Origin: Phyllobates terribilis
Lineage: Eukaryota
Direction of reading: 5' to 3'
Assembly (NCBI RefSeq): GCF_046119375.1
Contig: NW_027362771.1
Span: forward strand, 416,392,001-416,456,000
DNA length: 64,000 nucleotides
The notes below the pieces were generated by a model. It was not told where the DNA came from, ran no database searches, and was given only the letters and a program-made list of their open reading frames with translations. The position numbers were made by a program, and so were the translations under genes. Position 1 is the stretch's first letter. Each line of letters opens with the position of its first letter. Below, piece after piece: positions 13,511-63,588 of this stretch.

Positions 13511-13599
13511 CTATATGGGAGGGAACAGCCTGCATGGGGCATTATGTGGAGAGAACAGCCTGCGTGGTGCATTATGTGGGGGGAACAGCCTGCATGGAG

Positions 13600-16215: not shown

Positions 16216-18147
16216 GGGGTTATGTTTACATAACTTTGTTGCCCCATGAAGGGCAGGGGGGGGGGGGGGAATTTCTTGCACAGGGGCCCACTACAGTCTG
16301 TGTCCACCCCTGCATTGGTTGCCAGTGCCCAGGGCAAGGCAAGTATTTTGAGCCCCATAACCTGTGGACCATTATCATTTCCTATCTCCCATCCATCAGT
16401 CTAGACCATGTGCCAAACAACGGCCTCCATTTTTGCCTCCCTCTGACAGGCAGGGACTCCGGCGTGTCACTTCACTCACTCGTGCTGCGGCTGACACTTC
16501 CCTCCGCCTTGCTCTGCCTGCTTCCAGGTGGGCTTCTGGTTGTGTCCTTAGGGCACGCGTGCCCCCACTCTCTTAAAGGGCCAGCGTGCGCACTTGCTAT
16601 TACGTCCCCAGAAAATGGCTGCGTGACATTACATATATATATTGCTTCCTCCTTGCTGGGGAGGTGCCTGAGCAACCTTCCTGTTCTACAGTATATGTTA
16701 TAAAGGTTGCATACTAGTCCATGCTACCAACCCTGCCGCACTCTGGTGCAAATCAAGTATGCTGCACTCCGGTGCAAACCAAATGTCACGCCAGGTGTGG
16801 GGAAGACTTAGTGCAACACAGAGGGAAAAGGGAAAGGAAGCCCAAACAATAAGGAAAGGGGAAAAGTGGAGACCTCCTAGTCTGGTCTAGCGTCACCCTG
16901 TCTCAACTATCATCCCTATATTGCCTCCTCAGCAATCGCCGCATGCGTGCCTCGCCCTACTCTCCCTGACGTATGGCTACGGCTAGGGATGGAAGGAGAT
17001 GGCCACTAGTCAACCTCCACTAAACTCTATAGACAACAAGGGTAGACAAAACAGGGGAAATGGCTTAGTTTTAGATGTACTCCAATTAAACACACGGCCT
17101 CAAGCTCCAGAGAGGATGAAGTACTCCTCCTGCTAAGCTTCACAAGTAGAAATGGATATTGCCAGCAACTCCCTGTAACGGGTCTGGGAGGCGGAACCTC
17201 TGAGCAACTATACAAAGGGGCGGTCCTTGTAAGGAAGCGGGTGGCTCCCAGGGAAGACGGGCAGGTAGTCACGGCAAGTGACAGGGACAGTCTCTGGGTA
17301 GAAGGGCAGGTAGTCGCGGCAAGTGACAGGGACAGTCTCTGGGTAGAAGGGCAGGTAGTCACGGCAAGTGACAGGGACAGTCTCTGGGTAGAAGGACGGG
17401 TACTCAAGGCAAGTGACAGGGACAGTCTCTGGGTAGAAAGACAGCAGGCTGGTGGCTGGTGAGCGCTCCCAGGTGAGCGGGCGAGAGTCTTTGGACAGGC
17501 AGGTGGTCACGGCAAGTGACGGCAGAGCCTCCAGGTAGGCTAGCAGGCAGGTAGCAGGTGAGTGCTCCCAGGTGAGCAGGCAAGAGTCTCTGGACAGGCA
17601 GGTGGTCACGGCAAGTGACGGAGGAGCCTCCAGGTAGGCTAGCAGGCAGGTAGCAGGTGAGTGCTCCCAGGTGAGCAGGCAAGAGTCTCTGGACAGGCAG
17701 GTGGTCACGGCAAGTGACGGCGGAGCCTCCAGGTAGGCTAGCAAGCAGGTAGCAGGTGAGCGCTCCCAGGTGAGCAGGCAAGAGTCTCTGGACAGGCAGG
17801 TGGTCACGGCAAGTGACGGCGGAGCCTCCAGGTAGGCTAGCAGGCAGGTAGCAGATGAGCGCTTCCAGGTGAGCGGGCAGGCTGGTCCATAGACAGACTG
17901 ACAGGTGTCGGAAGGCAGACCGTCGGACCGCAGGCTTGCAAGCAGGTAAACGGATATCAGGCAGGTATCAAGCAGGAATCTGACAGGTGACTGGCAGGTA
18001 ACTGGTAACGGGACCTGAGGGCTGAAGCAGAGTGAAGGCTTTGCAACAAATTGCTCGGGCACCTCCATTTTGGAGGAGGTGCCTTATATATGGTGAGGTC
18101 CTCCGGCCATTGGCCGGGGACTCCTTAGGACGGCGCGCGCGGCCCCT

Positions 18148-21100
18148 TTAAGAGAGGGGGAGCGCGCGCGCCCTAAGCACAGTGGCCGGGAAGCAGCGCA
18201 CGCTGCCAGCAGAGCGGGAGGAGGACGCCGGGCACGGAGTGGAGAGGTGAGGGGAACAGCGCCCCTGCCTAGCAGGAGGCAGGGATGCCGACGCTACAGT
18301 ACCCCCCCCTTTAGGCCCCCCCTTTTTTAGGCCAGACAGAAATTTATCAAGGATGAGAGGGGCATGGATGTTCTCCCGGGGCTCCCAAGTTCTCTCCTCA
18401 GGACCAAACCCCTTCCAATCTACCAGAAAAAAGGTTTTTCCTCTTACCCTTTTGGTGGCCAGAATGTTCTCTACCTCAAACTCGTTTTCAGCGGAAACCG
18501 GAGCAGGAGGCGTACCTGTAGACTTGGAAAAAGAGTTAAGTACCACGGGTTTGAGGAGAGATACATGGAAGGAGTTAGGGATCCGCAAGTTGGCCGGGAG
18601 TTTCAATTTATAGGCCACTGGGTTGATTTGTTTGATAACTTCCAGTGGGCCGATGAACCGAGGCCCTAACTTGTAGGAAGGAATCTTGAGCCGGACATAC
18701 TTGGACGAGAGCCAGACTTTATCTCCAGGACGGAATTGTGGAGGATCCAGGCGCTTCTTGTCAGCGTGTTTTTTCATCCGCTCTGACGACAGAAGGAGTG
18801 CGGATCGGGTACTCTCCCAAATGGAGGAAAATTTGCTAACGAGAGATTCCGCAGCCGGATTGTCCACCGAGGTGGAGACGGGAAATGGGATCCGAGGATG
18901 CTGACCGAAGACTACAAAAAACGGGGACTTGGAGGAAGATTCGCTCTCGTGATTATTGTAAGAGAATTCGGCCCATGGCAGGAGATCCACCCAGTCTGAA
19001 TGGTGGGCATTAACGAAGTGCCGGAGGTAACTGGTCAGGATCTGATTGATCCACTCCACTTGACCATTGGACTGTGGGTGGTATGCGGAGGAGAAGTCCA
19101 GGGTGACGTCTAGCAGCTTGCATGTGGCTCTCCAGAAGCGTGAGGTGAACTGGACCCCACGATCCGACACGATGTGGAGGGGCAGGCCATGGAGACGGAA
19201 GATGTGGCGGATAAAGTCTTTAGCCAGCTCGGGTGCAGACGGGAGGCCTGGCAGGGGAATGAAATGAGCCATTTTGGAAAAGCGGTCAGCGACCACCCAA
19301 ATGACCGTATAACCGGCAGAGACAGGGAGATCTGTTATGAAGTCCATAGCTATATGCTGCCAGGGGGCAGCAGGTACTGGAAGAGGAAGGAGGCGACCGG
19401 CTGGCAGGTGTCTCGGAACCTTGTTGCGGGCGCAGGACACACAGGCAGAAACAAAGTCTATTACGTCCTTGTGCAGGGTAGGCCACCAGTAGTGCCGGGT
19501 GATAAGCTGGAGGGTCTTTTTCTGACCGGCGTGGCCAGCAAGCTTAGACGAGTGACCCCAGTGTAGGATCTTCTCCCGATCAGGTACCGTTACGAACGTC
19601 TTACCGGGAGGGAGACGATTTAGACTCACGGGGGCCACCTGCATTACTCTGATGGGATCGATGATGTGTTTAGGTTCCTCCTCAAGATCAGACACCAGGA
19701 AGGATCGGGACAAGGCATCAGCTTTGATGTTTTTGTCAGCCGAGCGAAAATGAAGAACAAAATCAAAGCGAGCAAAAAACAAGGACCACCGGGCTTGGCG
19801 CGGGTTAAGTCTCTGGGCACTCTGGAGGTAAGCCAAGTTCTTGTGGTCCGTGTAAATTATTACCGGGTGAAGAGCCCCCTTGAGCAGGTAACGCCACTCC
19901 TCCAATGCCAGCTTAATGGCCAATAACTCTCGGTCTCCTATAGAATAGTTGCGCTCGGAAGAGGAGAAGAGTTTGGAGAAGAAGCCGCAAGTTACCATTC
20001 TCCCGGAAGACGATTTTTGGGTAAGTACCGCTCCGGCTCCAGAAGAGGAGGCGTCAACTTCCAGGAAGAATAGCTTGTTGCCGTCCGGGCGATGCAGCAC
20101 CGGGGTGGAAGAGAAAGCCTGTTTTAAGGAAAGAAAGGCTTCCTCTGCTTCGGGCGGCCATTCTCTGGGATTAGTGCCCTTACGGGTGAGCGCAGAGATA
20201 GGGGCAGTCCGGGAAGAGAAGTGCGGTATGAAGAGGCGGTAGTAGTTGGCGAAGCCCAGGAACCGCTGAATAGCCTTCAACCCCTCTGGTCGAGGCCACT
20301 TCTCGATGGCAGACAGTTTCTCAGGATCCATTCGTAGGCCGGTCTGAGAAATTATGTAGCCCAAAAACGGAAGCGAGGTCTGCTCAAAGAGGCACTTCTC
20401 ATATTTAGCGTAGAGGTGGTTCTGCCTGAGCCTGAGCAGAACCTGATGAACATCCCTCCGGTGTGTGGGGAGATCCGGAGAGAAGACCAAGATGTCGTCC
20501 AGGTACACCACTACGCAGGAGTAGAGAAGGTCCCGGAAGATGTCATTGACCAACTCTTGAAAGACGGCAGGAGCGTTACAGAGACCGAAGGGCATTACCA
20601 GGTATTCATAGTGGCCGTCCCGGGTGTTGAATGCCGTCTTCCATTCATCCCCCTGACGGATACGGACCAGGTTATACGCCCCACGGAGGTCCAGCTTGGT
20701 GAAGATTCTAGCCCCCCTCAGACGGTCAAATAATTCCGGAATGAGCGGAAGGGGGTATTTATTCTTCACCGTGATCTGGTTAAGGCCTCTATAGTCTATA
20801 CAGGGACGGAGTAAGCCATCCTTCTTTTTGACGAAGAAGAAGCCTGCTCCCGCCGGGGAAGTAGATTTCCGGATGAACCCCCGGGCCAGATTCTCCTCAA
20901 TATATTCTGACATGGATCGGGTCTCAGCAGCAGACAAAGGGTATATGCGCCCACGGGGAGGAGTAGCGCCGGGCATCAGGTCGATTGGGCAGTCGTATGG
21001 TCTATGAGGGGGTAATGTCTCTGCCTCCTTTTTATTAAAGACGTCCGCATACGACCAATAAGGAGCCGGAAGACCAGGTAGATTGGCTGGAGTAGGAGAA

Positions 21101-21567
21101 GGACGGACAGGATGGACGGGAACTAAACAAGTCTTATGGCAGTCCTGTCCCCAGAAAAGGACTTCTCCGGTCTGCCAATCAAGCACGGGTGCATGTCTCT
21201 GAAGCCAAGGTAGGCCTAGTAAGAGGGCGTGAGAGAGTCCAGGCAGATCATGAAAGAAGATGCTCTCAGAGTGCAGCATTCCCACCTGCAGGGTTATGGA
21301 TTCGGTGATGAGTTGGATGGGATGTGGTAAGAGGCCCCCATCCACGGCAGCGACAGATAAGGGTACAGCTAGAGGTTTGGTGGGAATGCGGTATTTCTCT
21401 ACCAGAGACTGAGAAATGAGATTTCCGGCAGCTCCAGAGTCAAGTTGGGCTAGTTCAAAATAACGGTTCTCCCCGCAGATGATAGAGACCGACAGCAACA
21501 GAGATGGAGAGGGTTTACTCTTGTCTAGGACGACCTCTCTGAGCGATCCTAGACACAGGCGTTTCCC
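18148..21567 (-). CDS. Element A pol: protease-RT-RNaseH-integrase-chromodomain, uninterrupted
   Basis: LDSGA; VVVYLDDILVFS; H-H-C-C zinc finger; SDRGVQF; GPLEV; EFEVENIL...DWKGFGPEERTWEP chromodomain. The frame is open from the -1 slippery site. Confidence 0.93.
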   Translation of the reverse strand, partial: GKRLCLGSLREVVLDKSKPSPSLLLSVSIICGENRYFELAQLDSGAAGNLISQSLVEKYRIPTKPLAVPLSVAAVDGGLLPHPIQLITESITLQVGMLHSESIFFHDLPGLSHALLLGLPWLQRHAPVLDWQTGEVLFWGQDCHKTCLVPVHPVRPSPTPANLPGLPAPYWSYADVFNKKEAETLPPHRPYDCPIDLMPGATPPRGRIYPLSAAETRSMSEYIEENLARGFIRKSTSPAGAGFFFVKKKDGLLRPCIDYRGLNQITVKNKYPLPLIPELFDRLRGARIFTKLDLRGAYNLVRIRQGDEWKTAFNTRDGHYEYLVMPFGLCNAPAVFQELVNDIFRDLLYSCVVVYLDDILVFSPDLPTHRRDVHQVLLRLRQNHLYAKYEKCLFEQTSLPFLGYIISQTGLRMDPEKLSAIEKWPRPEGLKAIQRFLGFANYYRLFIPHFSSRTAPISALTRKGTNPREWPPEAEEAFLSLKQAFSSTPVLHRPDGNKLFFLEVDASSSGAGAVLTQKSSSGRMVTCGFFSKLFSSSERNYSIGDRELLAIKLALEEWRYLLKGALHPVIIYTDHKNLAYLQSAQRLNPRQARWSLFFARFDFVLHFRSADKNIKADALSRSFLVSDLEEEPKHIIDPIRVMQVAPVSLNRLPPGKTFVTVPDREKILHWGHSSKLAGHAGQKKTLQLITRHYWWPTLHKDVIDFVSACVSCARNKVPRHLPAGRLLPLPVPAAPWQHIAMDFITDLPVSAGYTVIWVVADRFSKMAHFIPLPGLPSAPELAKDFIRHIFRLHGLPLHIVSDRGVQFTSRFWRATCKLLDVTLDFSSAYHPQSNGQVEWINQILTSYLRHFVNAHHSDWVDLLPWAEFSYNNHESESSSKSPFFVVFGQHPRIPFPVSTSVDNPAAESLVSKFSSIWESTRSALLLSSERMKKHADKKRLDPPQFRPGDKVWLSSKYVRLKIPSYKLGPRFIGPLEVIKQINPVAYKLKLPANLRIPNSFHVSLLKPVVLNSFSKSTGTPPAPVSAENEFEVENILATKRVRGKTFFLVDWKGFGPEERTWEPRENIHAPLILDKFLSGLKKGGPKGGGTVASASLPPARQGRCSPHLSTPCPASSSRSAGSVRCFPATVLRARALPLS

Positions 21568-22505
21568 GACCTCTCCGGGCAGGAATGGATCCGGTGCTCC
21601 TTACTGCCACAGTAGAAGCAGCTCCCCTCGGCACGGCGTAACTCTTGACGGGTTTTGACCATCTTGGTCTGGTCGACCTGCATAGGCTCGGGTGAGTGCG
21701 CCTGGGGAGTAGCGGGAGAAGTAACAGATTTCTGAAAGGTAGGGGCTAGACGTGGAAACCTCCTCACCCCGGGTGACCTCTTTGGCGCGTTCCTGGAACC
21801 GGATGTCAATCCGGGTGGCAAGAGTTATTAAGTCGTCAAGTGTGGTAGGTATGTCCCGACCGGCAAGTTCATCTTTAATACGGCCGGACAGACCCTCCCA
21901 AAAGACAGACACCAGGGCGTCGTTATCCCAGGCCAGCTCCGAAGCAAGGGTACGGAACCGTATGGCATATTGGCCCACGGTGAGATTTCCTTGATGGAGG
22001 CGTAGCAGAGATGATGCAGATGAGGTCTTCCGTCCGGGTTCGTCGAAGACTTTCCGGAAAGCCGTGAGAAAGGCTGGCAGGTCGGACACCAGGAGGTCTC
22101 CTCTCTCCCATAGAGGATTTAGCCAAGCCAGTGCCTCCCCCGTGAGATGGGACATGATGAATGAAGGCTACTTTGGCCCGGTCGGAGATAAACTTGTGGG
22201 ACAGGAGTTCAAAGTGCAGGGTGCACTGGTTTATGAAGCCCCGAGCTTGAGCGGGGTCGCCTCCGAAGCGAGGAGGTGCAGAAAGCCGGGGTCCGGGGCA
22301 GGATGCCATGGTATTGGTGGGCAGTGGCGCTGCCGGGCTGCGAGTCATGACACTAGTGGTGGTTGCTGGTGGAGCAGTCAGAGTGTCCAGGCGAGAGTTG
22401 ACATTCCGCAGATGACTCAGGATGGACTCCTGTTGGGACCTCTGACGGGACAGTTCATGACATAGGTCCGAGAGCGAGGGAGCTTGGGTGCCACCGGGTT
22501 CCATG
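21549..22505 (-). pseudogene. Element A gag (CCHC zinc knuckle), broken by two frameshifts
   Basis: MEPGGTQAPSLSDL...PPRFGGDPAQARGFINQC. A 4-nt duplication (ttcattca) near 22160 and a second shift near 21775 interrupt it. Ends CFYCGSKEHRIHSC-PERSGNACV*. G GGA AAC slippery site at 21567-21561. Confidence 0.88.
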
Positions 22506-24523
22506 GCCTGAGCAAACTGTAACGGGTCTGGGAAGCGGAACCTCTGAGCAACTATACAAGGGGGGGGGGGGGGGGCGGTCCTTGTAAGGAAGCGGGTGGC
22601 TCCCAGGGAAGACGGGCAGGTAGTCACGGCAAGTGACAGGGACAGTCTCTGGGTAGAAGGGCAGGTAGTCGCGGCAAGTGACAGGGACAGTCTTTGGGTA
22701 GAAGGGCAGGTAGTCACGGCAAGTGACAAGGACAGTCTCTGGGTAGAAGGACGGGTACTCACGGCAAGTGACAGGGACAGTCTCTGGGTAGAAAGACAGC
22801 AGGCAGGTGGCTGGTGAGCGCTCCCAGGTGAGCGGGCGAGAGTCTTTGGACAGGCAGGTGGTCACGGCAAGTGACAGCAGAGCCTCCAGGTAGGCTAGCA
22901 GGCAGGTAGCAGGTGAGTGCTCCCAGGTGAGCAGGCAAGAGTCTCTGGACAGGCTGGTGGTCACGGCAAGTGACGGCGGAGCCTCCAGGTAGGCTAGCAG
23001 GCAGGTAGCAGGTGAGTGCTCCCAGGTGAGCAGGCAAGAGTCTCTGGACAGGCAGGTGGCCACGGCAAGTGACGGCGGAGCCTCCAGGTAGGCTAGCAGG
23101 CAGGTAGCAGGTGAGCGCTCCCAGGTGAGCAGGCAAGAGTCTCTGGACAGGCAGGTGGTCACGGCAAGTGAAGGCGGAGCCTCCAGGTAGGCTAGCAGGC
23201 AGGTAGCAGATGAGCGCTTCCAGGTGAGCGGGCAGGCTGGTCCATAGACAGACTGACAGGTGTCGGAAGGCAGACCGTCGGACCGCAGGCTTGCAAGCAG
23301 GTAAACGGATATCAGGCAGGTATCAAGCAGGAATCTGACAGGTGACTGGCAGGTAACTGGTAACGGGACCTGAGGGCTGAAGCAGAGTGAAGGCTTTGCA
23401 ACAACATTGCTCGGGCACCTCCATTTTGGAGGAGGTGCCTTATATATGGTGAGGTCCTCCGGCCATTGGCCGGGGACTCCTTAGGACGGCGCGCGCGGCC
23501 CCTTTAAGAGAGGGGGAGCGCGCGCGCCCTAAGCACAGTGGCCGGGAAGCAGCGCGCGCTGCCAGCAGAGCGGGAGGAGGACGCCGGGCACGGAGTGGAG
23601 AGGTGAGGGGAACAGCGTCCCTGCCTAGCAGGAGGCAGGGACGCCGACGCTACACTCCCTCTCAGACACACCAGGTATATATACACCCAGGCCAGAGAGC
23701 TAATTAGCAAGAGAGAGGTAGCCGCTCGGTCCTAAAGACAGCCTTTTAACTAAGAAATTGTCTGCAATGCCAAACGTAGAGATCTCCTGCAACTCACTGC
23801 AGGGCGACTGTCTGTCACCTCCGACACACCCGTGACACCAAGTCTGCTGCACTCCGGTGCAAACCAAGTCTGCTGTACTCCGATCCAAACCAAGCCTGCT
23901 GCACTATGGTGCAACCTGGCCGCACTCCGGTGCAACCCAGCCTGACGCTCTCCAGTGCTATCCTGTCTGCTGCTCCTGGGCACCATCCTGCCTGTCCTAC
24001 TAGGTCCAGCTGCAGCGCATCCGTTGGTCTGTTCTGGAGTAGCACCTGGGCTACCTCCCTCGTCCTTCCTCGGGTCGCAGAGTCGTAAAGCCGCCGTGCG
24101 TCCGGGGTTGGATTGGGCGAGGCCCCTAATTACATCCCTCCAGGCACTCCTCGGTCCGTGGCACAGTGGTTCCACAAACCACGTTCGTGACAATTTTATA
24201 TCTTAACCACACCCAGAGGTCAGGTATGTGGGTAGCTAGATCCGCCCATCTCTCCAAGTACCCGTTACCTGGCCCCAGGTGCACCAAACAGTCCTCTTAG
24301 TGCTTACGCACACTAGAGCAATATTCTTGGTTACATCACAGAGGACAGCCATCTCTGTGATACATACCTCCCATCAACAATGTGTCCATTAGACACCTTA
24401 CAGTATGTATTGAATTTTGAGGAAAAAGCTGAATAGTGTGCCCACTGATCCTATAGTTTTTTCAACTTTTTGCTCAAATTAGACATAACTTATCAATAAA
24501 AAGTTATACATTGTTATAATATA

Positions 24524-38336: not shown

Positions 38337-39700
38337 TGTTACGCTCGCGCCTGGACTGACTGGCGTGAGCGTGATTAGTGATCCCACTGTACCATGAACC
38401 GAGGAGGGCCTGGAGGGGCGTAACTAAGTATCAACCCGATCCGACTCCGTGGACCAAGAAGGAACCGAGCAGAGGGACCAGGTGCGACTCCAGGTCAGAC
38501 CCTGGTCACAGTTGTTGACCCACACTGGGGAATGCAGGAACAGGCAGGTTAGACTGGCATACAGGCAGGTGGGTATTGGCAAGTACGGCTGGTATGCAGA
38601 CAGGTGGGCACTGGCAAGCACAGTTGGTATGCAGACAGGCGGGCACTGGCAAGCACGGCTGGTATGCAGACAGGCGGGCACTGGCAAGCACGGCTGGTAC
38701 GCAGACAGGTGGGCACTGGCAAGCACGGCTGGTATGCAGACCGGGAGGTACTAGCAGGTTGGAGCGCAGGCTGGATAAGGCAGAGCAGAGAGAAGCCGCC
38801 GGAGCGGTGGGCAAGTCAGAGCAGAGAGAAGCTGCCAGAGCGGTGGGTAAGTCAGAGCAGAGAGAAGCTGCCGGAGCGGTGGGTAAGGCATAGCGGAGGG
38901 AAGCCGCCGGAGCGGTGGGCAAGTCAGAGCAGAGGGAAGCCGCCGGAGGGGTGGGCAAGTCAGAGCAGAGGGAAGCCGCTGGTGCGGTGAACAAGGCAGA
39001 GCAGAGAGAAGCCGCCGGAGCGGTGGGCAAGTCAGAGAGGACAGGGCTCTGTTCACATGGAACAGACTGGAAAATACAGGAAGATACAGAGGAAGGGAAA
39101 AGGGACCAGCAGAACCAGATACACACAAGGTACTTCCTATGAAGTAGCGAGTGGACACAAAACTCACAAACAGAAGCACAGAGACAACGAGTTGGAGCCA
39201 GGTGCAGGTTCAGATACTGCAGGAAAAGGGAAGGCATGGACATAGAGAAATACAGGCAACAGACTAGGATACAGTTCAGACAGGAACTGCTACTGCAATG
39301 AGATACAAGAACGAGCCTGGGAATACAGCCCCCAGAGTGGCAGAAACAGACTAGAAGTCAGAGATAACAGGTCTGGGAATGCAGCCCCCAGAGTGGCGGA
39401 AACAGACTAAAAGTCAGAGATGACAGGACAGGACCTGGCAATACAGTTGCAAAGACAAACTGAGTGAAGGTGTTGCTCAGGCACCTCCTACTGGGTGGAG
39501 GGGGTTTAAATATCCAGTGACTCACAGCAATAGGCTGGAGACGCATTAGGGGTGCGCCCACAGCAGCTACAAGAATCAGGAAGTAACCGGGCCGCCGCCC
39601 TAAGCAGTCAGTCAAGAGAAATGCACACAGCATGAACAATAGCACGGTTTGCAGGCTGGACTGACAGGTAAGATTGCGGTCTTGCATAGTGGGAGGTGGT
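38337..39700 (-). mobile_element. Solo LTR Z (Sushi-type) with 33-bp and 39-bp internal tandem repeats
   Basis: Begins tgttacg. Minus strand has tatttaaa then ggaggtgcctgagcaac (39488-39472). Right boundary and TSD not resolved. Confidence 0.6.
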
Positions 39701-50730: not shown

Positions 50731-51231
50731 TATGTCAAAGTAACATCAACATGAATACCATGCCAGGACTCAATGTTTCCCAGCACAAGATTGCCCAGAG
50801 CATCACACTGCGCTGTCATTTTGCCTTTTACCCCACAGTGCACCCTGGCAAGGAATAGTCCAGTAGTGCTTCTGATATTATGGAGGAAGCTGTAGTTATG
50901 GAAGTTGCCGATGAAAATGTGGAAAGTAGCCTTCGTAAAATGCTGCTGTTGAGGAGAGCCATAGGATCAAATACTTAATTAACCTCAAGACATAGGAGAT
51001 TGAGAGAAAAGACCCATAAAGTGTATTATTTCACCTTACATAAGCTTGTTCAGATCAAAAGATGGCTGCCATTTCCTGTTTCATCACACCATGCTCTGTT
51101 ATGCAAGATGGCAACTGGACCTATGACTACATCCTATTGTACATGTGGCAAAGCTGGAGACTTTATTTATGACTACATCCTGTCGTACAAGGAAGTTCTG
51201 GGAGGAAGCTGAATTCTATAGAAGGACTAAC

Positions 51232-51432
51232 CCCGATGACCTCATGGATTACTCTCCCTGATGACCTCATTGATCACGCCCCCTGATGACCTCATGGATC
51301 ACGCCCCCTGATGACCTCATGGACCTACCCACCCTGATGACCTCATGGATCTGCCCGTGGACTAACCAATCAATAGATCTGGTTACTCACATTCTGGAGC
51401 TAACCGAGCCCATATACAGAGTTTATATAAAT
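51232..51432 (+). promoter_or_regulatory. ERV U3 enhancer repeats, CCAAT and TATA
   Basis: 5 copies of ~25-bp ccctgatgacctcatggatcacgcc (7 in the 3' LTR, 62350-62520); aaccaat; tttatataaa; AATAAA at ~51447. Confidence 0.7.
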
Positions 51433-53355
51433 CTATATCGGAGTTGAATAAACGACACTTGGAGCTGTGTGTCTGATGTTATTCTTTCTTGCATGTGACG
51501 TGCCCCCTGCGCCGTGGGGAACTCGGTAGCCGGGCCGGTCGTTGCTAGGGGAGATGTCACAGTGGCGGTGACCCGATCCGTGACCCAGGGCGGTCAATAA
51601 AAAGGGGATATTTACAGGGGATTTATGGTTTTTATATACAGTTCGTGACGCCACCTGTGCTATGCGGCTATATGGAGCTGCCGCTGCGGAGCAGGTCCTC
51701 TGGAGCTGGTGTAAATGCAGCAGAGTTGGTTTAGCTCTCCACAGGTAGAGCTTAGCTCCAGGGCTGTGCTGAGTTGTTATGGATGTTGTGGTGTAGTGCA
51801 GGGGGTGATGGCGCAGCAATAACTTCACAGAGACAGTGGGGTGCAGTCTTCAGAGTTTACTCACAGTTGTTAAGTTCCTCAGGTTGCACTGTCCAGCTTA
51901 CAGCCTCCCACGTTCACCAGGCAGGGGTTCAGCAATCCCTCAGGTATTTCAAGAGTGCCTGACAGGACCCCGTTCTATATGACCTTCTCAGCCGTCTTTC
52001 TGCGCTGGCTCTCACCCTTCTTGCCCTGCGCCTCGCCAAACAATGTCCCAAGCCGGTATCCTCAGATCTTTCTGGGCAACCTGGAGTTCCCTGGATCCTA
52101 TGTGGTTACCTTTTTGGCGACTTGAGTGCGGATGTGGCAACTGCACCCTGAAAGTACAGAAGCCTCCGGTTTGCAGTTGAACTTTGTAATTCTCACTGAT
52201 TAGGGGCCGGTCCCCTCTGCGGCTCGATCCCTCCACAGATTCGGGCGTATGGATGGCCTCCAGCACTGCCCGTACCCCTGGGATCCCTTCTTCGTTCCTG
52301 GAGCCTTTCTCCTGCTCCTCTCTCCTTTCTCCTCTCCTTCTCAGTCTTGGGCCTCTCTCCTAGGCCCTCCTCCTGAGCAGAGCTCCTGCTCCCCTCAAAC
52401 TCCACCGACTGACTGGCCTCTCTTTCCAAGATGGTTCCCTCTTTTATATCACTTCTAACACGTGTTTGCCTGATCTACGTCCTCCACCCACACCCACTAC
52501 ATGGTTCCTCCTACTTTGGTTTCCCCCACTCCAACCAGGGACCTCAGCAGGAAGCGCGACACATCTTGCCCTTCCAGCTTGTCTGGAGTAGTGTAATGTT
52601 GGATGCAGGTGTTAGGGTCCCGGGCAGCACTCTATCCTTACCTGAGAGTGAGATACCACACCTCTGGGTGAGATGCAGTACCTCTGTGGCAACTGAACCC
52701 GCAGGGGCGCCACATACCCCCTTGGTAAAACACAGCACGTCTGCGGGCTGGAACAGAGTAAAGCACAAAATATTTTAAAGACATGCAATTTTTAGAATGC
52801 ATTCGCATATAAGATCATAAACAAACTTTTTCTTCCCTTTATGGGAGGCACATTCCTTGAACGTTACATGTTTCTTATCAAGAATTTTTAAAACATTATA
52901 AAACTTTTTCAATACAATTTTCTTCACATTTATAAAACATTTCTCATATAAAACATTTTTAGTAGGCTACAGCGCAATCTGCAACCGGCTGTCCATTCTT
53001 TTCAACAAGGTGCAATCTAGCAAACATGAGCATGAGGGACCGGTCCGAAAACCCTCAACGTAGGCCCTGGGCGTGGCTGCAGGGCATAGGTGATCCAGGT
53101 GTTGGACCAGGTCTTCGGCCACGCCAAATGGGTTTTTGTTCTGAGGTCATCTCCGTTGCACCAAACCAATAAGGGGCACTTTAAGAAGTGCAACTATTTA
53201 CAAGGACAGTTTTCGGCTGCTCACAGTCCTCAGCCTGTCAATCTTTGGTACCCTTGCCGGGTAATTATGGAAACACACTCATAACTTTTTCCAGTTTACA
53301 CCAACATAGCTGTACCCTTCCGGGTAACTATATACAGTACAGTTCCACCTACTGC

Positions 53356-54596
53356 TCAGTAGTGGTGCTTCCTCCCGGGAAACAACTCCTGTCCATTATA
53401 AGCTGGCCCAGCCGGGTCATCAGCTCTAGATGGCGAGGGTTCACTCTTCTCCACCACCCTGTGGACGTTCAGGGCATACCAGCCCCTCTCACCTCTATGC
53501 CTGGTGTAGGTGACGTGATCACCAGGGTAGAGATTCCGATCTGGATGTCCTTCCTTTAGGTGGGACTCCAGGTCCCTCCTGTTGACAAAAAGATCTGTCT
53601 CGGTGTGTGGATCCCGGATGAAACCCCATCCTCCATCCAGGTTAAACTTCACCATGGTCCCTTCGGCACGGGGACCATGTGCAGCTTCCTTGTTTTTGCG
53701 GGCCCGGGCCTTCTCCTCCATGTTCCGGGCCTCTAGTCTCTCCCAGCACACCCGCCGGAGGTGCCGCTCTTTTTCCAGCTGCGCCAGCTCCCTCTTGCAG
53801 TGCTCCACCTGGCGCGCAGCCTCTGCTCTGGTCTCCCGGGGAAACCCCATGAGGTCCCCCCCAGGGTTGTCCCACAGGAACTGGTCCTCTTCACTCCCAG
53901 AGATGGCTAAGGGCTCAGGAGCGGGTAACAGCGGGAGGCTACGGTTTTTCACCTCCGCGGACCAGTCCCAAGGCAGACGCTCGTACACCCACTAAGGTGT
54001 CAGAGGCGGTGGTTCCTGCAAGGGGCCCAGGAGCGGGCCAGCGTCACTGGTGCCCGGGGTGACGGTTCCAGGCTCCGAGGTACGTTTAGGGCGTTCGAGC
54101 CCGGCGACGGATGATATTCCAGGAGGGCTAAGAACGGATCGTCATTTTCCACGCCCAGGGATGGAGGGCTCTGAAGGGGGACCAGGTGCGGGCCAGTGTC
54201 GGTAGCGCCTGGTGTTGACGGTTCCGGCAGGGGGTCCAGGAGCAGGTCAGCGCCTTCAGCGCCCGGGACAGGGAGACTCCTCTTACCTGCTCCCGAGGCT
54301 GCTCCTGTGCTGCACTCTGCCTCCTGGTGCTGATCTGGCTCCACCAAGGCTGGGGCGCTGCCTGCTTCTTGCAGCGCTGGCTGCTGCCGGTTCGCCATCC
54401 TCTCGACCATCTCCTTTTTCCAGGTGGCGATGGCATCCTGCTGGGCCCTCTCCATCCTCCGACTTAGGTCCTCCATCCCGGCGTAGAGGAACTCTGTATC
54501 CTCCCGGGACAGCTTGGATACCATCTCCTCCAAGGTGAGGGGTGCCTCAGGCTGTTGCAGGCCGCTGGCGGGAACTCCTGTCTCACCTCCCTCCAT
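53356..54596 (-). pseudogene. Coiled-coil plus cold-shock-domain protein, split by a frameshift and a TAG near 54000
   Basis: Kozak ATG at 54596 (gcaagATGg), helical LEEMVSKLSRED...ERAQQDAIATWKKEMVERM. A second frame holds a helical segment then the CSD (53670-53458): EGTMVKFNLDGGWGFI (RNP1), TDLFVNRRDL (RNP2), NLYPGDHVTYTRHRGERGWYALNV. Confidence 0.8.
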
Positions 54597-54943
54597 CTTG
54601 CCTGCCGGTTGCCATCTGTCTAGACTGCTTGAGACCACACCGTCTCCCAGTTTTCTTCTTTTTTCCTCTCCCCTTTCTGGGGCGGTCCCATGGCTGCTTG
54701 CTGTCGGACACACCTTTGGGCAGCCCCCCCAGCTTGATGGACATATCCACATACATGGTCACTGTTGCTCGGGGCGGGCCTCGCTTTTGGCGCCATTCTG
54801 GAACCCGGCCCACGATGGGAGGCGGTTTCTTGTTGTCTTTTGGCTCGCACATAATGGCCCCCGTTCTTCTGGGGTGGGCGCCACACTCAGTACAGGACAC
54901 AGTTTCCAGGCGCACAACACCCGGCGACAACGGGTGGGCTCAT

Positions 54944-54961
54944 ATCCTGTTCGTGACGCCA
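54944..54961 (-). promoter_or_regulatory. PBS complementary to the tRNA-Ser(CGA) 3' end
   Basis: TGGCGTCACGAACAGGAT is the complement of ...ATCCTGTTCGTGACG-CCA, the recalled 3' end of vertebrate tRNA-Ser-CGA; 4 nt from the LTR end. Confidence 0.85.
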
Positions 54962-56289
54962 AAGATGACGCGTCCCTGGGCAGTGGGGTACTCGGTAGCC
55001 AGGCCGGTCGTTGCTAGGGGAGATGTTACAGTGGCGGTGACCCGGTCCATGACCCAGGGCGGTCAATAAAAAGGGGATATTTACAGTGGATTTATGGTTT
55101 TTATATACAGTTCGTGACGCCACCTGTGCTATGCGGCTATAAGGAGCTGCCGCTGCGGAGCAGGTCCTCTGGAGCTGGTGTAAATGCAGCAGAGTTGGTT
55201 TAGCTCTCCACAGGTAGAGCTTAGCTCCAGGGCTGTGCTGAGTTGTTATGGATGTTGCGGTGTAGTGGAGGGGGTGATGGCGCAGCAATAACTTCACAGA
55301 GACAGTGGGGTGCAGTCTTCAGAGTTTACTCACAGTTGTTAAGTTCCTCAGGTTGCACTGTCCAACTTACAGCCTCCCGCGTCGCGCTATGTTCACCAGG
55401 CAGGGGTTCAGCAATCCCTCAGGTATTTCAAGAGTGCCTGACAGGACCCCGTTCTATATGACCTTCTCAGCCGTCTTTCTGCGCTGGCCCTCACCCTTCT
55501 TGCCCTTCGCCTCGCCAAACAATGTCCCAAGCCCGTATCCTCGGATCTTTCTGGGCAACCTGGAGTTCCCTGGATCCTATGTGGTTACCTTTTTGGCGAC
55601 TTGAGTTTGGATGTGGCAACTGCACCCTGAAAGTACAGAAGCCTCCGGTTTGCAGTTGAACTTTGTAATTCTCACTGATTAGGGGCCGGTCCCTTCTGCG
55701 GCTCGATCCCTCCGCCGCCTGGCAGATTAGGGCGTACGGGTGGCCTCCAGCACTGCCCGTACTCCTGGGATCCCTTCTTCGTTCCTGGAGCCTTTCTCCT
55801 GCTCCTCTCTCCTTCCTCCTCTCCTTTTCAGTCTTGGGCCTCTCCTAGGCCCTCCTCCTGAGCAGAGCTCCTGCAGAGCTCCTGCTCCCCTCAAACTCCA
55901 CCAACTGACTGGCTTCTCTTTCCAAGATGGTTCCCTCTTTTATATCACTTCTAACACGTGCTCCCCTGATCTACGTCCTCCACCCACACCCACTACATGG
56001 TTCTCCCTACTTTGGTTCCCCCCACTCTAACCAGGGACAGGGCTCAGCAGGAAGCGCGACGCATCTTGCCCTTCCAGCTGGCCTGGAGTAGTGTAGTGTT
56101 GGATGCAGGTGTTAGGGCCCCGGGCAGCACTCTATCCTTACCTGAGAGTGAGATACCACACCTCTGGGTGAGATGCAGTACCTCTGTGGCGACTCAACCC
56201 GCAGGGGCGCCACACATGCACTTGACCATATCCATTAGGCCAGGAGCAGGCAACTAGTGAACATATCAAAATGTTCGCCCTAACATTTT

Positions 56290-56308
56290 TGGCTGTCCAA
56301 CGTGGGGC
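56290..56308 (+). promoter_or_regulatory. ERV primer-binding site, tRNA-Lys(CUU)-like, degenerate
   Basis: tggctgtccaacgtggggc versus the recalled Lys1,2 PBS TGGCGCCCAACGTGGGGC; immediately after the LTR end. Splice donor cg|gtaagt at ~56410. Confidence 0.65.
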
Positions 56309-57152: not shown

Positions 57153-59360
57153 ATGGAGAAATTAATGCAGTTTTGTCGTATTGGCACTAAGCCAAATTCA
57201 GATGGCAAGTTGGACCCGTGTGCATTAGATGCGACTCGTGAAGGGAAAACTCATGTTAAACAATGTAAAAAGCTTATGAAGTTGAGTGGAATGCCAGAAG
57301 GGGGGAGGTTACAGCCCCTGGAGTGGAAGACTGTCTTAAAAGAGAGAAAAGGTACTCTAGAAGATAATGAATTGTTGTCTACTGCTAGAGCATTGGAAAG
57401 AGTCTCTGAAAGTTTGTATAGAGAAAATTGGTTAGAAGAGGAAAAGAAAAAGGACAGAGTTTTGAGTTATGTGTATTACAAAAATGTATCCTGTGAGCGG
57501 CCACCGCCATATAATGGTGGTGATGGTGGCACATTGCCATGTGCTGTTTCTGGTGGTGGCCATTTTGTGGATGGCACATGGGCTCCTTCTGGTGGCAGCC
57601 ATTTTGTAGATGGCAAATGTGCTCCTTCTGGCGGCAGCCATTTTGTGGATGGCAAATTTGCTCCTTCTGGCGGCAGCCATTTTGTGGATGGCAAATGTGC
57701 TCCTTATGGCAGCAGCCATTTTGTGGATGGCAAATGTGCTCCTTCTGGTGGCAGCCATTTTGTGGATGGCAGATGTGCTGCCTCCGGTGGCGGCCATCTT
57801 GGAACGTTGCCCCAGATTATACAAACTGAGCCATATCATCATGTAACTGACATAGATCTGGCTAAATCGAGTGAGGCATAATCCAGGAATATACACACGT
57901 CTTTCGGTGGTGAACATACTAGGCCAATGTTACACACCACAAGACCAGATCCTTTTTACCCAGTAATGACTACTAATGGCCAGTACTATACTTCTTCGGG
58001 AAGTGATCATGCTTTACCCATGTTCCCTGTCACAAAGGTGTCCAGTGAGTCACCAACCCTTTCACCTAACACTCCCATCGTGAGCCCAGCTATTCTCCCA
58101 CCTGGATCATCCCCAGCACTTTCCACTGTCACTTCCCCTGGCAACTCAGCCACACGTCCACATGAGTTACTTCAAGCAGCGACCTCTCCTCCCAACGCTT
58201 CCGCTACAACAGCACTCTCACGCAGTCTACTTAACTCTATTCCAGTACCTCACAGTCTCTCTCGCAGCCGAGCGCACACCTGTATGGAACGATGGCCACT
58301 GAATCAAGGAGGGGCTCAATCTGGGGGGGACACCAACATCACAGGAAGCACAAAGGGTAGGGAATGTTGGCAACCCATTTTTGAAAAAGAACTTCCTGAG
58401 GGACCCTTGTTAGTGGTGGGTAAGGGTGACATAACGACAATGGAAACAGACGCTATTGCTAATGCTGCCAACCCTCGGTTAGAGCACAACGGAGGTGTGG
58501 CTAGAGCTATAGTGGAGGCAGGAGGGGCGACTATTCAAACTGACAGTCGAATCATTGTTGAGTCGCGTGGTCAGATAGCTGTTGGGGACAGAGCCGTGAC
58601 TAAATCTGGCAATCTTCATTGTAGAATGATCTTACACGCTGTGATCCCTACTTTTGATCCTATTCATCCACATGTCAGTGCCCGACAACTACGCGCTGCA
58701 ATAACTCGTATCTTAGAGTATGCGAATATTAGTGAGCAGATTGAGACCTTGACAATTCCTGCCATTGGTGTTGGCCTCTTCGGGTTCCCTGTTCATGCGT
58801 GTGAAAGGGAGATTGTTGGAATTATAATGAACAAGTTTAGCCCCCCAAGCATTTGCTGCCTCTCCGAAATCAGGTTAATTAGTAATGAGGACAGGACTGT
58901 TAAAGCTTTTAAGACTGCCTGCATCACCTGGACTCCACCCCATGATATTGGAGCTGCCCAAATAGAGCCCCTCATTCCAGGACTGTTACCTCCCTCTGCT
59001 CCTCATACACAAGTAATTACACCTGTACTTCCATTGCCATCTCTACTCCCGCCTCAGGTGCCACCACCAACCCTGCCAACACCCACGTCTGAGGAGCCCA
59101 TCCTTTATGTCAAGTGTATACCCCAGCAAGCTGCTACTCTGCTGAACCAACTCACAGATCCAGAAAAACAGCCGATGCCTTTCTAGAGAAGCATGCTTCA
59201 AATCCAAAGGAATTACACCTCCACATGGCAAGATCTAATTTCCCTGGCAAATCTTAAAGCAGGCGATGCATATTGGCCTGTTATGGACACTGCATTAAAT
59301 GATGCCTCACTTGTCAGTGACACCACATGGGACTCTGGTGCTCAGTTCTGCCAACAACTT
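57153..59360 (+). pseudogene. ERV gag: MA-like N-terminus, PPPY late motif, 13-aa repeats, Pro-rich region, macrodomain, CA N-terminus; one frame with two in-frame stops
   Basis: ORFs 57153-57881, 57927-59186 and 59193 onward share one frame. Stops TAA 57879 and TAG 59184. CA-like LYVKCIPQQAATLLNQLTDPEKQP...YTSTWQDL. Confidence 0.85.
58380..58925 (+). CDS. Macrodomain (MacroD/PARP14-like ADP-ribose-binding fold) within ERV gag
   Basis: KGDIT, DAIANAAN, HNGGVARAI, AVTKSGNL, ILHAVIP and IPAIGVGLFGFP occur in canonical order and spacing, with no stop inside the domain. Confidence 0.93.
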
Positions 59361-61860
59361 AAGCTCCGAGCAGTTAACGCGGCAACCGTACTAGAAAGTC
59401 CCATTGTGCCCAATCCACATACATTGTTATCAGAAATACCATCAGATGCAAAACGTTTCACTGTCATCGATCTGGCCAATGCTTTCTTCAGCGTACCACT
59501 ACATCCAGAAGATTGGTACCTGTTTGCCTTCACTTACAGAGGATCACAATACACCTGGACAGTCTTACCACAAGGAGCACAGAACTCACCAAGTCATTTC
59601 TCTCAGGCCCTTGCCTCTTGTTTACAGCCGTGGAGAGAGACTAACCATCAAGTTGTCCTTCTTCAGTATGTGTATGATCTCCTACTATGTTGTCAGCAGA
59701 AGAGTCGAGTCTCAGTCTTCTCCTTCATCTTGCACAACAAACCTGCAAGGTGTCCCTCAACAAAATCCAGTGGTGTCAGCCCAAAGTTGTGTTTTTAGGC
59801 CATTGTCTCTCTCCAAACCTGAAACACCTAACGGGTGAAAGGAAACTTGCTATTGAGACCGTTCCTCTACCAAAAGGACCTAAGCAATTACAAGCTTTCT
59901 TAGGACTTATCACATATTGTCGCCAATGAATTCCAGATGCCTCAAAGCTGATGCAACTGTTGTACGATGACCTCAAGACGTCAGCTTTTCCACTTTGTCC
60001 CAAATCCGTGGAAGCCTTCTACGCTCTTTAACAGGCCATACAGTCTGCACCAGCTCTTGGAATCCCAAATTATCTACTACCTTTTTACTTGTGTGTCAGT
60101 GAAGTAGCAGGACATGCTTCCGGAGTCCTAGCACAGAAACACGGGGGAAGAACAAGACCCATCGGCTATTACTCTGCCCGTCTGGACTCGGTGTCTCAAG
60201 CTTCCGCTTCTTGCCTCAGAGCCGTTCATGCTGCACATGTGCTTCTGGACAAAACTTCTGATATCATCTTAGGACATCCGGTTCTCTTAATGGCTCCACA
60301 CGACATAAAAGCTATTCTTGACCAAACTCAACCTAAACATCTGTCGCTGCAGCGTCAAATGAGACTCCAATGTTCCCTCTTGATTCCGGATAATGTCACT
60401 CTTGTCCGCTGCACCATCCTCAACCCGTCCACGCTACTTCCTCTTTCCAGGGGGGATGTGGATGATGCTACTGATGCTCTAGGTGAAGATGCCTTTACAC
60501 ACTAAGAGGATCATGATTGTCTCGAACAGATGCAGGAAGAAGCTGCCTCCAAGAGAAATGTGTCTGAAGACCCACTTCCGCATGCTGACCTGACGTTCTT
60601 CACCGATGGTTCCAGATTTGCAGATGAAACAGGAAGATTCCATATGGGATATGCTGTGGTTACACATGACCAGGATTCATTTAGAAAAGAGAAAGCAGCC
60701 GTGTACATGTCTCAAGACACTGAAGAAGGGCCTCAAAGCTCTCTTATGAAGTTTTATCCATTTCCATCAAGACAAGACACCAGATGATGAAAAGAAGTCG
60801 TGGCAAGAAGCAGGAGCTAAAAAGGATGAAGATGGAGTCTGGAGGAAGAACAAAAAGATTTGTCTACCTCGTAATCTGTACCACTCGGTATCAGAATGGG
60901 CACACGGTATCACCCAGAGAGGCAAGAATCAGATGAATGACTTGATTTGGAAGACTTATATGGCACATGGGATTTCTACTGTCACCCAAAAATATTGTCC
61001 TGCTTTGTGTGTGCAACATGCAATCCAGCACCGCCTCAAAAAGTTACTCTGAAACATTTGGCTAAACCACTCTATCCCTTTCAAAGAATTCAAATCGATC
61101 ATATTCAAATGCCAAAAGTAGGGAAATACGAGTATGTACTGGTAGTGACTGACATGTTCTCGGGATGGCCTGAAGCCTATCCAGTAACCAACATGACTGA
61201 CAGAGTGACTGTTAAAAGAGACTGATGACTGAGGTAGTGTGCAGATATGGAATCCCAGAGGTGATTGAGAGTGACCAAGGACCCGCATTCATTTCAGCAC
61301 TGACTAAGGAACTATGGACATTGGTAGGGCCCGATTTGGGTTTACATACTCCGTATCACCCCTAGAGCAGTGGTAAAGTAGAAAGGCTAAATGGCACCTT
61401 GAAAAACAAAATACTGAAAGCCAGTCAGGAGGTTAAACTTCCTTGGACAGACATTTTGCCCATTGCCTTATATTCAGTCAGAAACACTCCGAGGGGTCCA
61501 GCTAAACTTACACCACATGAGATTCTTTTTGGGGAGCCTCCAAGGTTGCGTCAATATTTTCCACAACAGCTAGCCTTAGGAAGTGATACTCTTGTAGATT
61601 ATGTCATTGCTCTTACTAAAGAATTGTCAGTAATACATGCATGAGTTTTATCATCCATTCCAGATCCAGATTTCAGTGAAGGTACTCACACTTTCCAACC
61701 TGGTGACAACGTGCTGGTAAAGAAGTTCACCAGAAAGACATCCCTGGAGTTGAGATTTGAGGGTCCCTACCAAGTGCTCCTGACCACTCCTACTTCAATC
61801 AAACTCTAAGGAAGACCGACGTGGATACACGCCTCCCACTGCAAGAAGTTTGTGCCTCCA
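59361..61860 (+). pseudogene. ERV pol remnant (RT, partial RNaseH, integrase) with stops, frameshifts and deletions; protease absent
   Basis: LRAVN...FTVIDLANAFFSVPL...LPQGAQNSP...YVYD (YVDD mutated); FFTDGS; IQIDHIQMP; SDQGPAF; WIHASHCKK. Confidence 0.92.
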
Positions 61861-61877
61861 TCAGAACCTTCTACAAA

Positions 61878-61979
61878 ATGTTACATATCCTCTACTTTGT
61901 GTGTTGTGCCATTCTATACTCATTTGTAGGAGCACAACAGGTCGCAATCACCCAAGCAAGAGGGGTGATCACGCACTGA
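61878..61979 (+). pseudogene. env remnant: signal peptide only
   Basis: MLHILYFVCCAILYSFVGAQQVAITQARGVITH* directly after integrase and ~40 bp before the PPT. Confidence 0.65.
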
Positions 61980-62767
61980 TGGGTGAGGGAACCAGAGACA
62001 AAAGGTTAATAAAGTATTTAGGGGGGACTGTTGAGGAGAGCCATAGGATCAAATACTTAATTAACCTCAAGACATAGGAGATTGAGAGAAAAGACCCATA
62101 AAGTGTATTATTTCACCTTACATAAGCTTGTTTAGATCAAAAGATGGCTGCCATTTCCTGTTTCATCACACCATGCTCTATTATGCAAGATGGCAACTGG
62201 ACCTATGACTACATTCTGTTGTACATGTGGCAAAGCTGGAGACTTTATTTATGACTACATCCTGTCGTACAAGGAAGTTCTGGGAGGAAGCTGAATTCTA
62301 TAGAAGGACTAACCAACCACAGAGCGACACATCGTTTGGAGACACCCACCCTGATGACCTCATGGACCACGCCCCCTGATGACCTCATGGACCAACCCAC
62401 CCTGATGACCTCATGGATCACGCTCCCTGATGACCTCATGGATCATGCCCCCTGATGACCTCATGGATCACGCCCCCTGATGACCTCATGGACCAACCCA
62501 CCCCGATGACCTCACAGATCTGCCCATGGACTAACCAATCAATACATCTGGTTACTCACATTCTAGGGCTAACCGAGCCCATATACAGAGTTTATATAAA
62601 TCTATGTTGGAGTTGAATAAAGGACACTTGGAGTTGCGCCATAGCTGATCAAGGAGAGCTTACATCCGACTGTGTGTGTCTGATGTTATTCATTCTTGCA
62701 TGCACTTGATCATATCCATTAGGCCAGGAGCAGGCAACTAGTGAACATACCAAAATGTTCGCCCTAA

Positions 62768-63588
62768 GGCTGCGTGCCCACGATGCGTTTTTCATGCGTT
62801 TCCGCTGCGGAAATTCCGCAGCGGAAGCGCATCAAAAACGCTTGGTAATCCGCACCCCATGGTCCCCAATGGCATTCCGCAATGTCAATGCCCATGCTGC
62901 GGATTTTCCCCCAGCGTTTCTGCAGCGCTCATAAATCCGCAGCATGTTCATTAATTTTGCGGAAGCGCAGCGGAATTGCCGCCATTGACTTGCATTGAGA
63001 CGCACATAATCCGTGTCTGTACATTTGTACACGCGGATTATATGCGTTTCAATGTGCAGATGGTACCCAGTTCTGGAGGAGAGAAGACTCTCATCCAGAC
63101 CTGGGTACCATTGTACCTGTAAAAAAAGAATAAAATAATAAATAAAGTTTATATTCACCTGTCCGGCGGCCCCTGCAGCGCTTATCTTCCAGGACCTGAG
63201 ATGACGTCACGGTCATGTGACCGCAGGCTGTCTCGCGAGAGCCCGGCAACCAGAAAGAAGCCAGGACGAGCGCGACAGCACACGCGGCGGGGGATCGGGG
63301 GTAAGTATAGCTTTATTTGTTTATTTTTACGGTCACACTATATAAATCCATGCCGTTTGCATGGATTTATATAGTGTGACCTACTTGTCAAGCACTTTCC
63401 AAGTGATGCTATCGCCTGGAAAGTGCTTGTCAGTCCGCATGCCGAAACGCATGCGTTAACGCATGTGAATCCGCATGTTTTCTGCAGGAAAAACGCATGC
63501 ACAATCCGCATGCGTTTTTTCTGGCAAGGGAGATGCAGAAACGCTGCAGAAATGCTCTGCTTCATTTCTGCATCGTGGGAACATAGCC
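62768..63588 (+). mobile_element. PIF/Harbinger-like MITE inserted 2 bp from the end of the ERV 3' LTR
   Basis: TAA TSD; TIR ggctgcgtgcccacgatgc / gcatcgtgggaacatagcc. Removing it restores ...gccctaaCA, matching the 5' LTR end. Confidence 0.88.

Follow-up and report, generated by a model that had tools for sequence, protein, structure and literature searches.

A stretch of 64,000 nucleotides from the genome of Phyllobates terribilis (the window; contig NW_027362771.1 of assembly GCF_046119375.1, positions 416,392,001 to 416,456,000) contains an endogenous retrovirus (ERV) whose gag frame appeared to encode a complete macrodomain. This raises the questions of whether a macrodomain is a regular part of Gag in this viral lineage or an accident of one copy, from which protein it was derived, and what it might do for the virus. 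The element in the window belongs to a class I (epsilon-like) retrovirus of frogs whose Gag has the macrodomain between matrix and capsid; this particular copy is dead.

Structure of the provirus and of its family

The features of the window copy were as follows (window coordinates).

50943..50946, + strand: left target-site duplication (TSD), CTGC; 4-bp TSDs were found at the same LTR ends in five other copies
50947..51495, + strand: 5' LTR, first part, beginning TG; aligns with the 3' LTR
51496..56214, no strand assigned: nested, unrelated TG...CA LTR element inside the 5' LTR, with 1.2-kb LTRs and TSD CATG
56215..56285, + strand: 5' LTR, last part, ending CA; 97% match to the end of the 3' LTR
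56290..56308, + strand: primer-binding site (PBS), assigned from sequence, presumably tRNA-Lys-like; same site in other copies
57153..57512, + strand: start of gag, with a matrix-like domain and a PPPY late-domain motif (57501-57512); conserved over six aligned Gags
57539..57811, + strand: six 39-bp in-frame tandem repeats, at the position of a RanBP2-type zinc finger in relatives
57879..57881, + strand: premature stop TAA upstream of the macrodomain, in the window copy
about 58371..58940, + strand: macrodomain of PARP9/PARP14 MD1 type, in the gag frame
59082..59363, + strand: N-terminal part of capsid, cut by an internal deletion; premature TAG at 59184-59186
59364..61875, + strand: remains of a broken pol, with RT, connection, RNase H and integrase
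61878..61980, + strand: env stub, signal-peptide region only; the same start opens a 2-kb env in copy L032
62020..62028, + strand: polypurine tract (PPT), assigned from sequence
62029..62769, + strand: 3' LTR; tandem repeats lie within it and its terminal CA is missing
62770..62773, + strand: right TSD, CTGC

Read from the ATG at 57153, the gag frame passes through the matrix-like domain and PPPY to the six 39-bp repeats; a linker rich in Pro and Ser leads on to the macrodomain, and a Pro-rich one from there to the beginning of capsid. The macrodomain is therefore in frame between the PPPY/Pro-rich region and the capsid N-terminus, where the preliminary description had placed it. The window copy cannot make the fusion, because two stops, at 57879 and 59184, break its gag; the first (TAA, 57879-57881) parts matrix from the macrodomain and the second is the TAG at 59184-59186. 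Both are minor variants by comparison with 40 other copies. The first site is a sense codon in 32 of these, a stop in four and a gap or without a match in four, and the second is a sense codon in 39 and without a match in one.

Approximately 1.35 kb is missing after 59363 (capsid C-terminus, NC, protease and the start of RT), and across the junction at 59363/59364 the N-terminus of capsid reads in frame into RT. The window copy has this deletion in common with nine of the 40 fetched copies (L038, L044, L046, L052, L059, L061, L064, L065 and, in part, L067); an internally deleted, non-autonomous form was thus amplified as a subfamily. The env of the window copy is a 0.1-kb stub. Of the matched LTRs with a TSD described at the outset, the LTRs and CTGC are present, but the 5' LTR is split by the nested LTR element of 4.7 kb and the 3' LTR is without its terminal CA. 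The 1.2-kb LTRs of the nested element are about 94% alike, with gaps. On its minus strand lies an ORF with a cold-shock domain (53356-53991; PF00313, E 3.6e-7), and no RT or integrase match was obtained among the three ORFs scanned in 51496-56214. Tandem arrays of 31-, 99-, 35- and 36-bp repeats occupy 13453-14900, 17200-23700 and 38499-39077 of the window, and a 5.3-kb-spaced duplication is also present elsewhere in it.

Sister copies (family A) were collected by searching the genome with the macrodomain. The best 150 of 3030 candidates were scored and 151 matches listed, most of them at 80-95% identity; the 3030 candidates span other families too and are not a copy count. Forty copies were fetched at 10 kb. 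The macrodomain was in a proviral setting in all 40, being followed by capsid in 39 and by integrase in one deleted copy, so that the gag/pol flanking expected of a viral domain was found throughout. Natural, unbroken frames running from matrix through the macrodomain to capsid were present in L048 (847 aa), L055 (912 aa) and L041 (803 aa), as well as in P0001 (956 aa). The claim of an in-frame macrodomain in Gag thus stands for these sequences, but in the window copy the frame is closed by its two stops.

The longer family A copies continue with NC, then TAG, then an in-frame protease (9/9 looked at), and TAG followed by in-frame pro was also seen in 5/5 family B copies looked at. Class I ERVs are described as having gag and pro-pol in one frame with a read-through stop between them (PMC13517186, extract), and this arrangement is present in families A and B. 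The best solved-structure match of a sister-copy RT was to MLV (E 2.6e-53, versus 4.9e-35 for foamy virus). Longer copies encode an MLVIN_C integrase C-terminus and a gamma-type env (TLV_coat), which in L032 has CxxC, furin and CX6CC motifs. The MLV-like RT, integrase C-terminus and capsid, the gamma-type env and the layout LTR-PBS-gag-pro-pol-env-PPT-LTR with a 4-bp TSD are those of a class I (gamma/epsilon-like) ERV. LTR pairs differ by 1.3-3.6% (median 2.7%, eight pairs) and the window pair by about 4%; family A appears young as judged from this divergence.

An env of at least 1.2 kb was present in five of the 40 family A stretches, a stub in 21 and none within the stretch in 14 (lacking or not reached). 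Env-bearing copies occur in families A, B, E and F. No Gly was found at position 2 in the window Gag or in any aligned Gag, so membrane targeting of these Gags is likely to proceed by a route other than myristoylation. In the relatives P0001-P0005 the PPxY motif is followed by a zinc finger of RanBP2 type. At the corresponding place family A has a tandem repeat that varies and contains Cys and His residues, and the repeat at 57539-57811 is possibly a degenerate finger of this type. RanBP2 fingers have been noted in an anuran ERV Gag (bioRxiv 2024.07.05.601823, extract). Contigs of four sequencing runs cover the region in pieces and are uninformative on expression; no RNA run was among those listed as containing it.

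The macrodomain as a lineage-wide part of Gag

At least six divergent families of the Phyllobates terribilis genome, and Gags of three other frog genera, have the macrodomain in frame within Gag, and this layout is a lineage-wide, heritable part of Gag. Database Gags with the order matrix, PPxY, macrodomain, capsid, zinc knuckle were identified in Ranitomeya variabilis, Anomaloglossus baeobatrachus and, as two lineages, Ascaphus truei; PF01661 was present in 5/5 database proteins matched by the capsid region. Family B, with a macrodomain 45% identical to that of family A, has complete gag frames, pol and env. A genome search with capsid, which does not select for the macrodomain, gave four more families at 46-57% identity, and a macrodomain precedes capsid in all 14 stretches. 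The suggestion that the domain might be a one-off, post-integration insertion was thereby ruled out, as was a host PARP retrocopy, by these capsid-picked families together with the proviral setting of the copies.

Among the capsid-picked A and B copies, 34/40 had at least 50 macrodomain residues within 2.5 kb, two had only the last 20-24 residues, and four had no macrodomain within 2.5 kb. Two of these four have macrodomain matches 6.5-7.3 kb upstream, and in L147 the region has been replaced. A macro-less subfamily was considered and rejected; none of these copies forms a shared deletion. Macrodomain and capsid trees contained the same five lineages, with the deep order not settled, and their comparison neither supports nor opposes co-inheritance. 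A tandem duplication in L123 (family E) has produced two macrodomains before capsid. Dozens of truncated, near-identical family B copies recur every 150-200 kb (C4:775-781 Mb, C19, C159, C188, C192; L106, L107), as if one insertion had been multiplied within a tandem or segmental repeat of very large size.

No fish or non-anuran relative was obtained from word-seeded protein searches and a profile search, all of limited reach, and a scan of IMG/VR found nothing. An atlas search gave no usable match for the whole Gag and, for the capsid part, nothing beyond leads under 0.9 to capsids of retroviruses. The top viral fold match to a model of macrodomain plus capsid (described below) was Gag from the Rhinella marina endogenous retrovirus (RMERV, cane toad; UniProt A0A2U9K508, 873 aa), with E 1.1e-29 over 460 columns at 30% identity, the next match being at 3e-10. 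This suggests that RMERV Gag has the same layout. Like the frog macrodomain ERVs, RMERV and the anuran RMERV/Xen1 epsilon clade have an anuran host and a gamma-type env (PMC12690878, extract); the Gag fold match makes the frog macrodomain ERVs candidate members of this epsilon-like clade.

The preliminary description had anticipated that macrodomain-bearing fish ERVs might already be reported, and they are. Fish epsilon-like ERVs occasionally have additional ORFs for CNPase or macro domain proteins (PMC4977317, extract, citing Basta 2009; Basta is also in the reference list of PMC10499221, extract). These fish elements are likewise class I and epsilon-like, with a macrodomain of cellular type, but there the domain is an occasional extra ORF, whereas in the frog lineage it is inside Gag throughout. 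It is possible that a fish form is also embedded in Gag, or that the fish and frog forms share an origin. In the literature covered, with Basta 2009, Russo 2018 and Kambol 2003 beyond its scope, no account was found of a macrodomain within the Gag of a retrovirus, or in any ERV of an amphibian; the main texts of PMC12690878, bioRxiv 10.1101/2024.07.05.601823, PMC8278194 and PMC8450580 have no mention of one (supplements may differ). Macrodomain-encoding fish ERVs are thus in print and the Gag-embedded frog form is without a known account, although prior mention in the descriptions of the nearest named viruses (Russo 2018, Kambol 2003) is quite possible.

Identity, origin and active site of the macrodomain

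All of the motifs on which the macro fold had been recognised (GDIT, NAAN, HNGGVA, GLFGFP) are present in the window copy, and PF01661 matched with E 1.3e-24 (87 bits, cut-off 22). The best solved relatives were MD1 of human PARP14 (E 2.6e-37) and of PARP9 (E 2.7e-34); MacroD1 (5e-10) and SARS-CoV-2 Mac1 (6e-7) matched more weakly. Structure prediction from a single sequence gave a pLDDT of only 39, and the model used was that of the macrodomain plus capsid of a natural sister copy, L045. Its macrodomain superposed on PARP9 MD1 with Z 29.2 (rmsd 1.6 over 189 residues; rmsd values to PARP9 MD1 were 1.5-1.6), tied with PARP14 MD1 (Z 28.6), and its capsid on MLV capsid with Z 11.7 (rmsd 2.9, 86 residues) or Z 11.1 (rmsd 9.9, 148 residues). 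The PF01661 score above cut-off and the rmsd of the predicted L045 model identify a macro fold.

PARP9/PARP14 MD1 (PDB 9QYD/9QYE, 3Q6Z/3VFQ) is closest by both sequence and fold, with approximately 40-44% identity to PARP9 MD1 and with the HxGG loop and the hydrolase signature in common. The viral domain differs in being a single domain in a polyprotein, without PARP, KH or WWE domains. Coronavirus nsp3 Mac1, alphavirus nsP3 and the rubella/HEV domains are also viral macrodomains with hydrolase-type motifs and serve below as the model for the proposed function. These, however, are non-structural replicase domains, whereas that of the frog ERVs is in the structural polyprotein, and they are far more distant (E about 6e-7 versus 1e-37; Z 17-21). 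The frog ERV macrodomain was acquired independently of them. MacroD and RNA-virus donors were rejected on their much weaker sequence and fold matches.

For trees, 417 macrodomains were cut from 161 stored proteins, host labels being taken from domain layout and name-checked for 20 proteins. The viral rows were not monophyletic in the first tree, which had a very long unrelated branch inside the viral clade. In the second, from which 19 rows were dropped (long branches and thinning), the eight viral rows formed one clade (100/98), grouped with PARP9 MD1 at 85/89. With four more viral families (12 rows), the viral clade was recovered at 90/97 beside PARP9 MD1 (97/95) and PARP14 MD1 (99/97), and the branching order was without support. 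Viral macrodomains and MD1 together were split from the MD2 outgroup at 100/100. By these trees the viral macrodomains are one clade of PARP9/PARP14 MD1 type, placed outside the supported PARP9 and PARP14 clades. Of the donors first proposed, PARP9/14 or MacroD, the macroPARP is favoured by matches and trees and MacroD is not. Our reading is a single capture of a macroPARP MD1 before the viral lineages split, with PARP9 the more likely donor by best scores. A recent capture from frog PARP9 was seen in no tree, though a union of viral macrodomains with frog PARP9 is compatible with the AU test (p-AU 0.24, not rejected).

The published hydrolase signature consists of N(6x)GG[VLI] and G[VIA][YF]G (PMC10470015, extract). 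PMC10221186 (extract) gives the same positions, with activity shown only for MD1 of PARP9 and PARP14, on whose status as active hydrolases PMC10499325 and PMC10470015 (extracts) agree. Family A has both motifs: the catalytic Asn is present in 46 of 49 copies, the two Gly in 43 and 46, the loop-2 Ile in 47 and Phe in 47. The window copy has Leu in place of the loop-2 Ile (2/49 copies), a residue listed as allowed at this position (PMC10221186, extract). HNGG had been regarded as a possibly damaging substitution in a GGG loop. This was not borne out, and HNGG as a loss of function was discarded: host MD1 domains differ at the position preceding GG (Gly in just 8/34 PARP9 MD1), the active hydrolase human PARP14 MD1 carries HYGG, and an Ascaphus Gag also has HNGG.

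The other substitution first noted, AVIP for AVGP, is a real derived change. HAVGP has become HAVIP in family A (Ile in 48/49 copies; Gly in 68/69 vertebrate MD1), at a position that varies in the reader domains MD2/3. The Ser before loop 2 (68/69 vertebrate MD1) is Gly in 56/59 family A copies, as in 221/236 MD2/3. The near-invariance of the HAVGP Gly and of this Ser is our own count and not a published criterion. Both residues are kept in Anomaloglossus, family B and most others; the two changes appear confined to family A, lean towards reader-type domains and, as second-shell changes, may have weakened hydrolysis there. The Asp of GDIT, which we take to be the adenine-binding residue, is Asn in 29/29 family B copies, and family E has Ser at this place. 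Loop-1 motifs are broken in the single copies of families C and D, and the Anomaloglossus Gag macrodomain keeps every canonical motif. Site conservation over seven viral rows correlated with that of host MD1 (Spearman 0.65 over 173 columns). From these residues, the ancestral viral domain looks like a hydrolase that underwent later, lineage-specific changes.

Selection and proposed function

For dN/dS, each column was scored for variants relative to its most frequent codon, and CpG codons were left out. Singletons are mostly post-integration; variants in at least three copies formed the shared class, which is small (7 to 17 variants per class). Singletons were neutral in every region (0.9-1.8). 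Among shared variants, the macrodomain of family A gave 7 nonsynonymous and 14 synonymous changes (dN/dS 0.19 versus 1.40 for singletons, p 3e-5; 49 copies), alongside 0.32 for capsid, 0.36 for RT and 0.38 for integrase. The family B macrodomain gave 0.30 for shared variants versus 1.02 for singletons (p 0.035; 29 copies). With ten capsid-picked copies added (59 family A copies), values at three thresholds were 0.12-0.22 for the macrodomain, 0.13-0.52 for capsid (p 0.18 at the lowest threshold) and 0.60-0.83, not significant, for the upstream linker in the same frame. Most copies were chosen by macrodomain score, which may favour intact domains, but their singletons are without such bias. These codon counts indicate that the macrodomain was under purifying selection during replication of the family, at a strength like that on capsid. 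The decay envisaged in the preliminary description therefore applies to the window copy, which is dead, but not to the lineage. Purifying selection in a polyprotein can reflect a need for folding, and part of it may stem from germ-line retrotransposition rather than infection, since most family A copies are without env.

Domains of Gag are produced and enter particles in large numbers, and the interval between matrix and capsid is the position of MLV p12, which is released by the viral protease. The reading we prefer, at about even odds (roughly 0.5), is a virion-borne ADP-ribose eraser, packaged with Gag, that would undo antiviral ADP-ribosylation. An ancestral virus would have captured the macrodomain once, from a host macroPARP transcript. 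The domain would be made in every Gag molecule, carried into the particle and, at the p12 position, freed by the viral protease. It could then strip mono-ADP-ribose set on viral or host proteins by interferon-induced PARPs, either within the virus-producing cell or shortly after entry. The reversal of interferon-induced mono-ADP-ribosylation is drawn by analogy with Mac1 and nsP3.

It is rather unlikely that the domain, at least in family A, is a reader, binding ADP-ribose without cutting it and thereby shielding modified sites or anchoring Gag or the entering core to host proteins or chromatin bearing ADP-ribose, in the manner in which p12 anchors the MLV core. The two family A changes towards MD2/3-type residues are fixed over copies, the binding-pocket Asp, Gly-Gly and loop 2 are retained, and hydrolase activity has been lost repeatedly with the fold kept in PARP14 and alphaviruses (PMC10221186, extract); the published catalytic signature, however, is intact in family A, and the Anomaloglossus Gag has every canonical motif. 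Less probable again is an active eraser with a target outside the interferon response, such as viral RNA or cDNA ends or silencing factors during intracellular germ-line retrotransposition. Such a role would fit the fact that most sampled family A copies have a macrodomain yet have lost env, and PARP14 MD1 has both protein and nucleic-acid ADP-ribosylation as targets (PMC10499325, extract). Against this, four families do have env-bearing copies, env-less copies may be mobilised in trans, and the class of donor is induced by interferon.

We consider it very unlikely that the domain is a tolerated passenger or a structural spacer, acquired a single time and retained only because a folded insert does no harm whereas misfolding would spoil Gag. 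Between lineages the macrodomain is less conserved than capsid (34-48% versus 41-65% identity), and pocket residues differ between families, as this explanation would expect. Yet the domain is present in every lineage seen, though its flanking linkers vary freely in length, the constraint on it is as strong as on capsid, and pocket motifs are conserved in lineages from very distant frogs.

To extend the virion-borne eraser to a whole clade of amphibian epsilon-like retroviruses, including RMERV, is more tentative, and we hold it possible but doubtful. A long-held PARP9/PARP14 hydrolase in Gag would then be a virion-delivered antidote to interferon-induced ADP-ribosylation, that is, the Mac1 strategy invented independently in a structural protein, and would constitute fossil evidence of macroPARP restriction of retroviruses. 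In a few families of RNA viruses, ADP-ribose erasers are known as parts of replicase proteins; a Gag macrodomain under capsid-like selection would point to a genuine pressure of ADP-ribosylation on the assembly or entry of retroviruses. The natural series of canonical, Asp-changed and reader-leaning domains could be used to tell binding apart from hydrolysis.

Fragments of the family A macrodomain in Phyllobates terribilis (P0010, and cluster members P0166-P0169) are called 'PARP9-like' genes in RefSeq, and viral fragments named as host genes in this way can inflate frog PARP counts.
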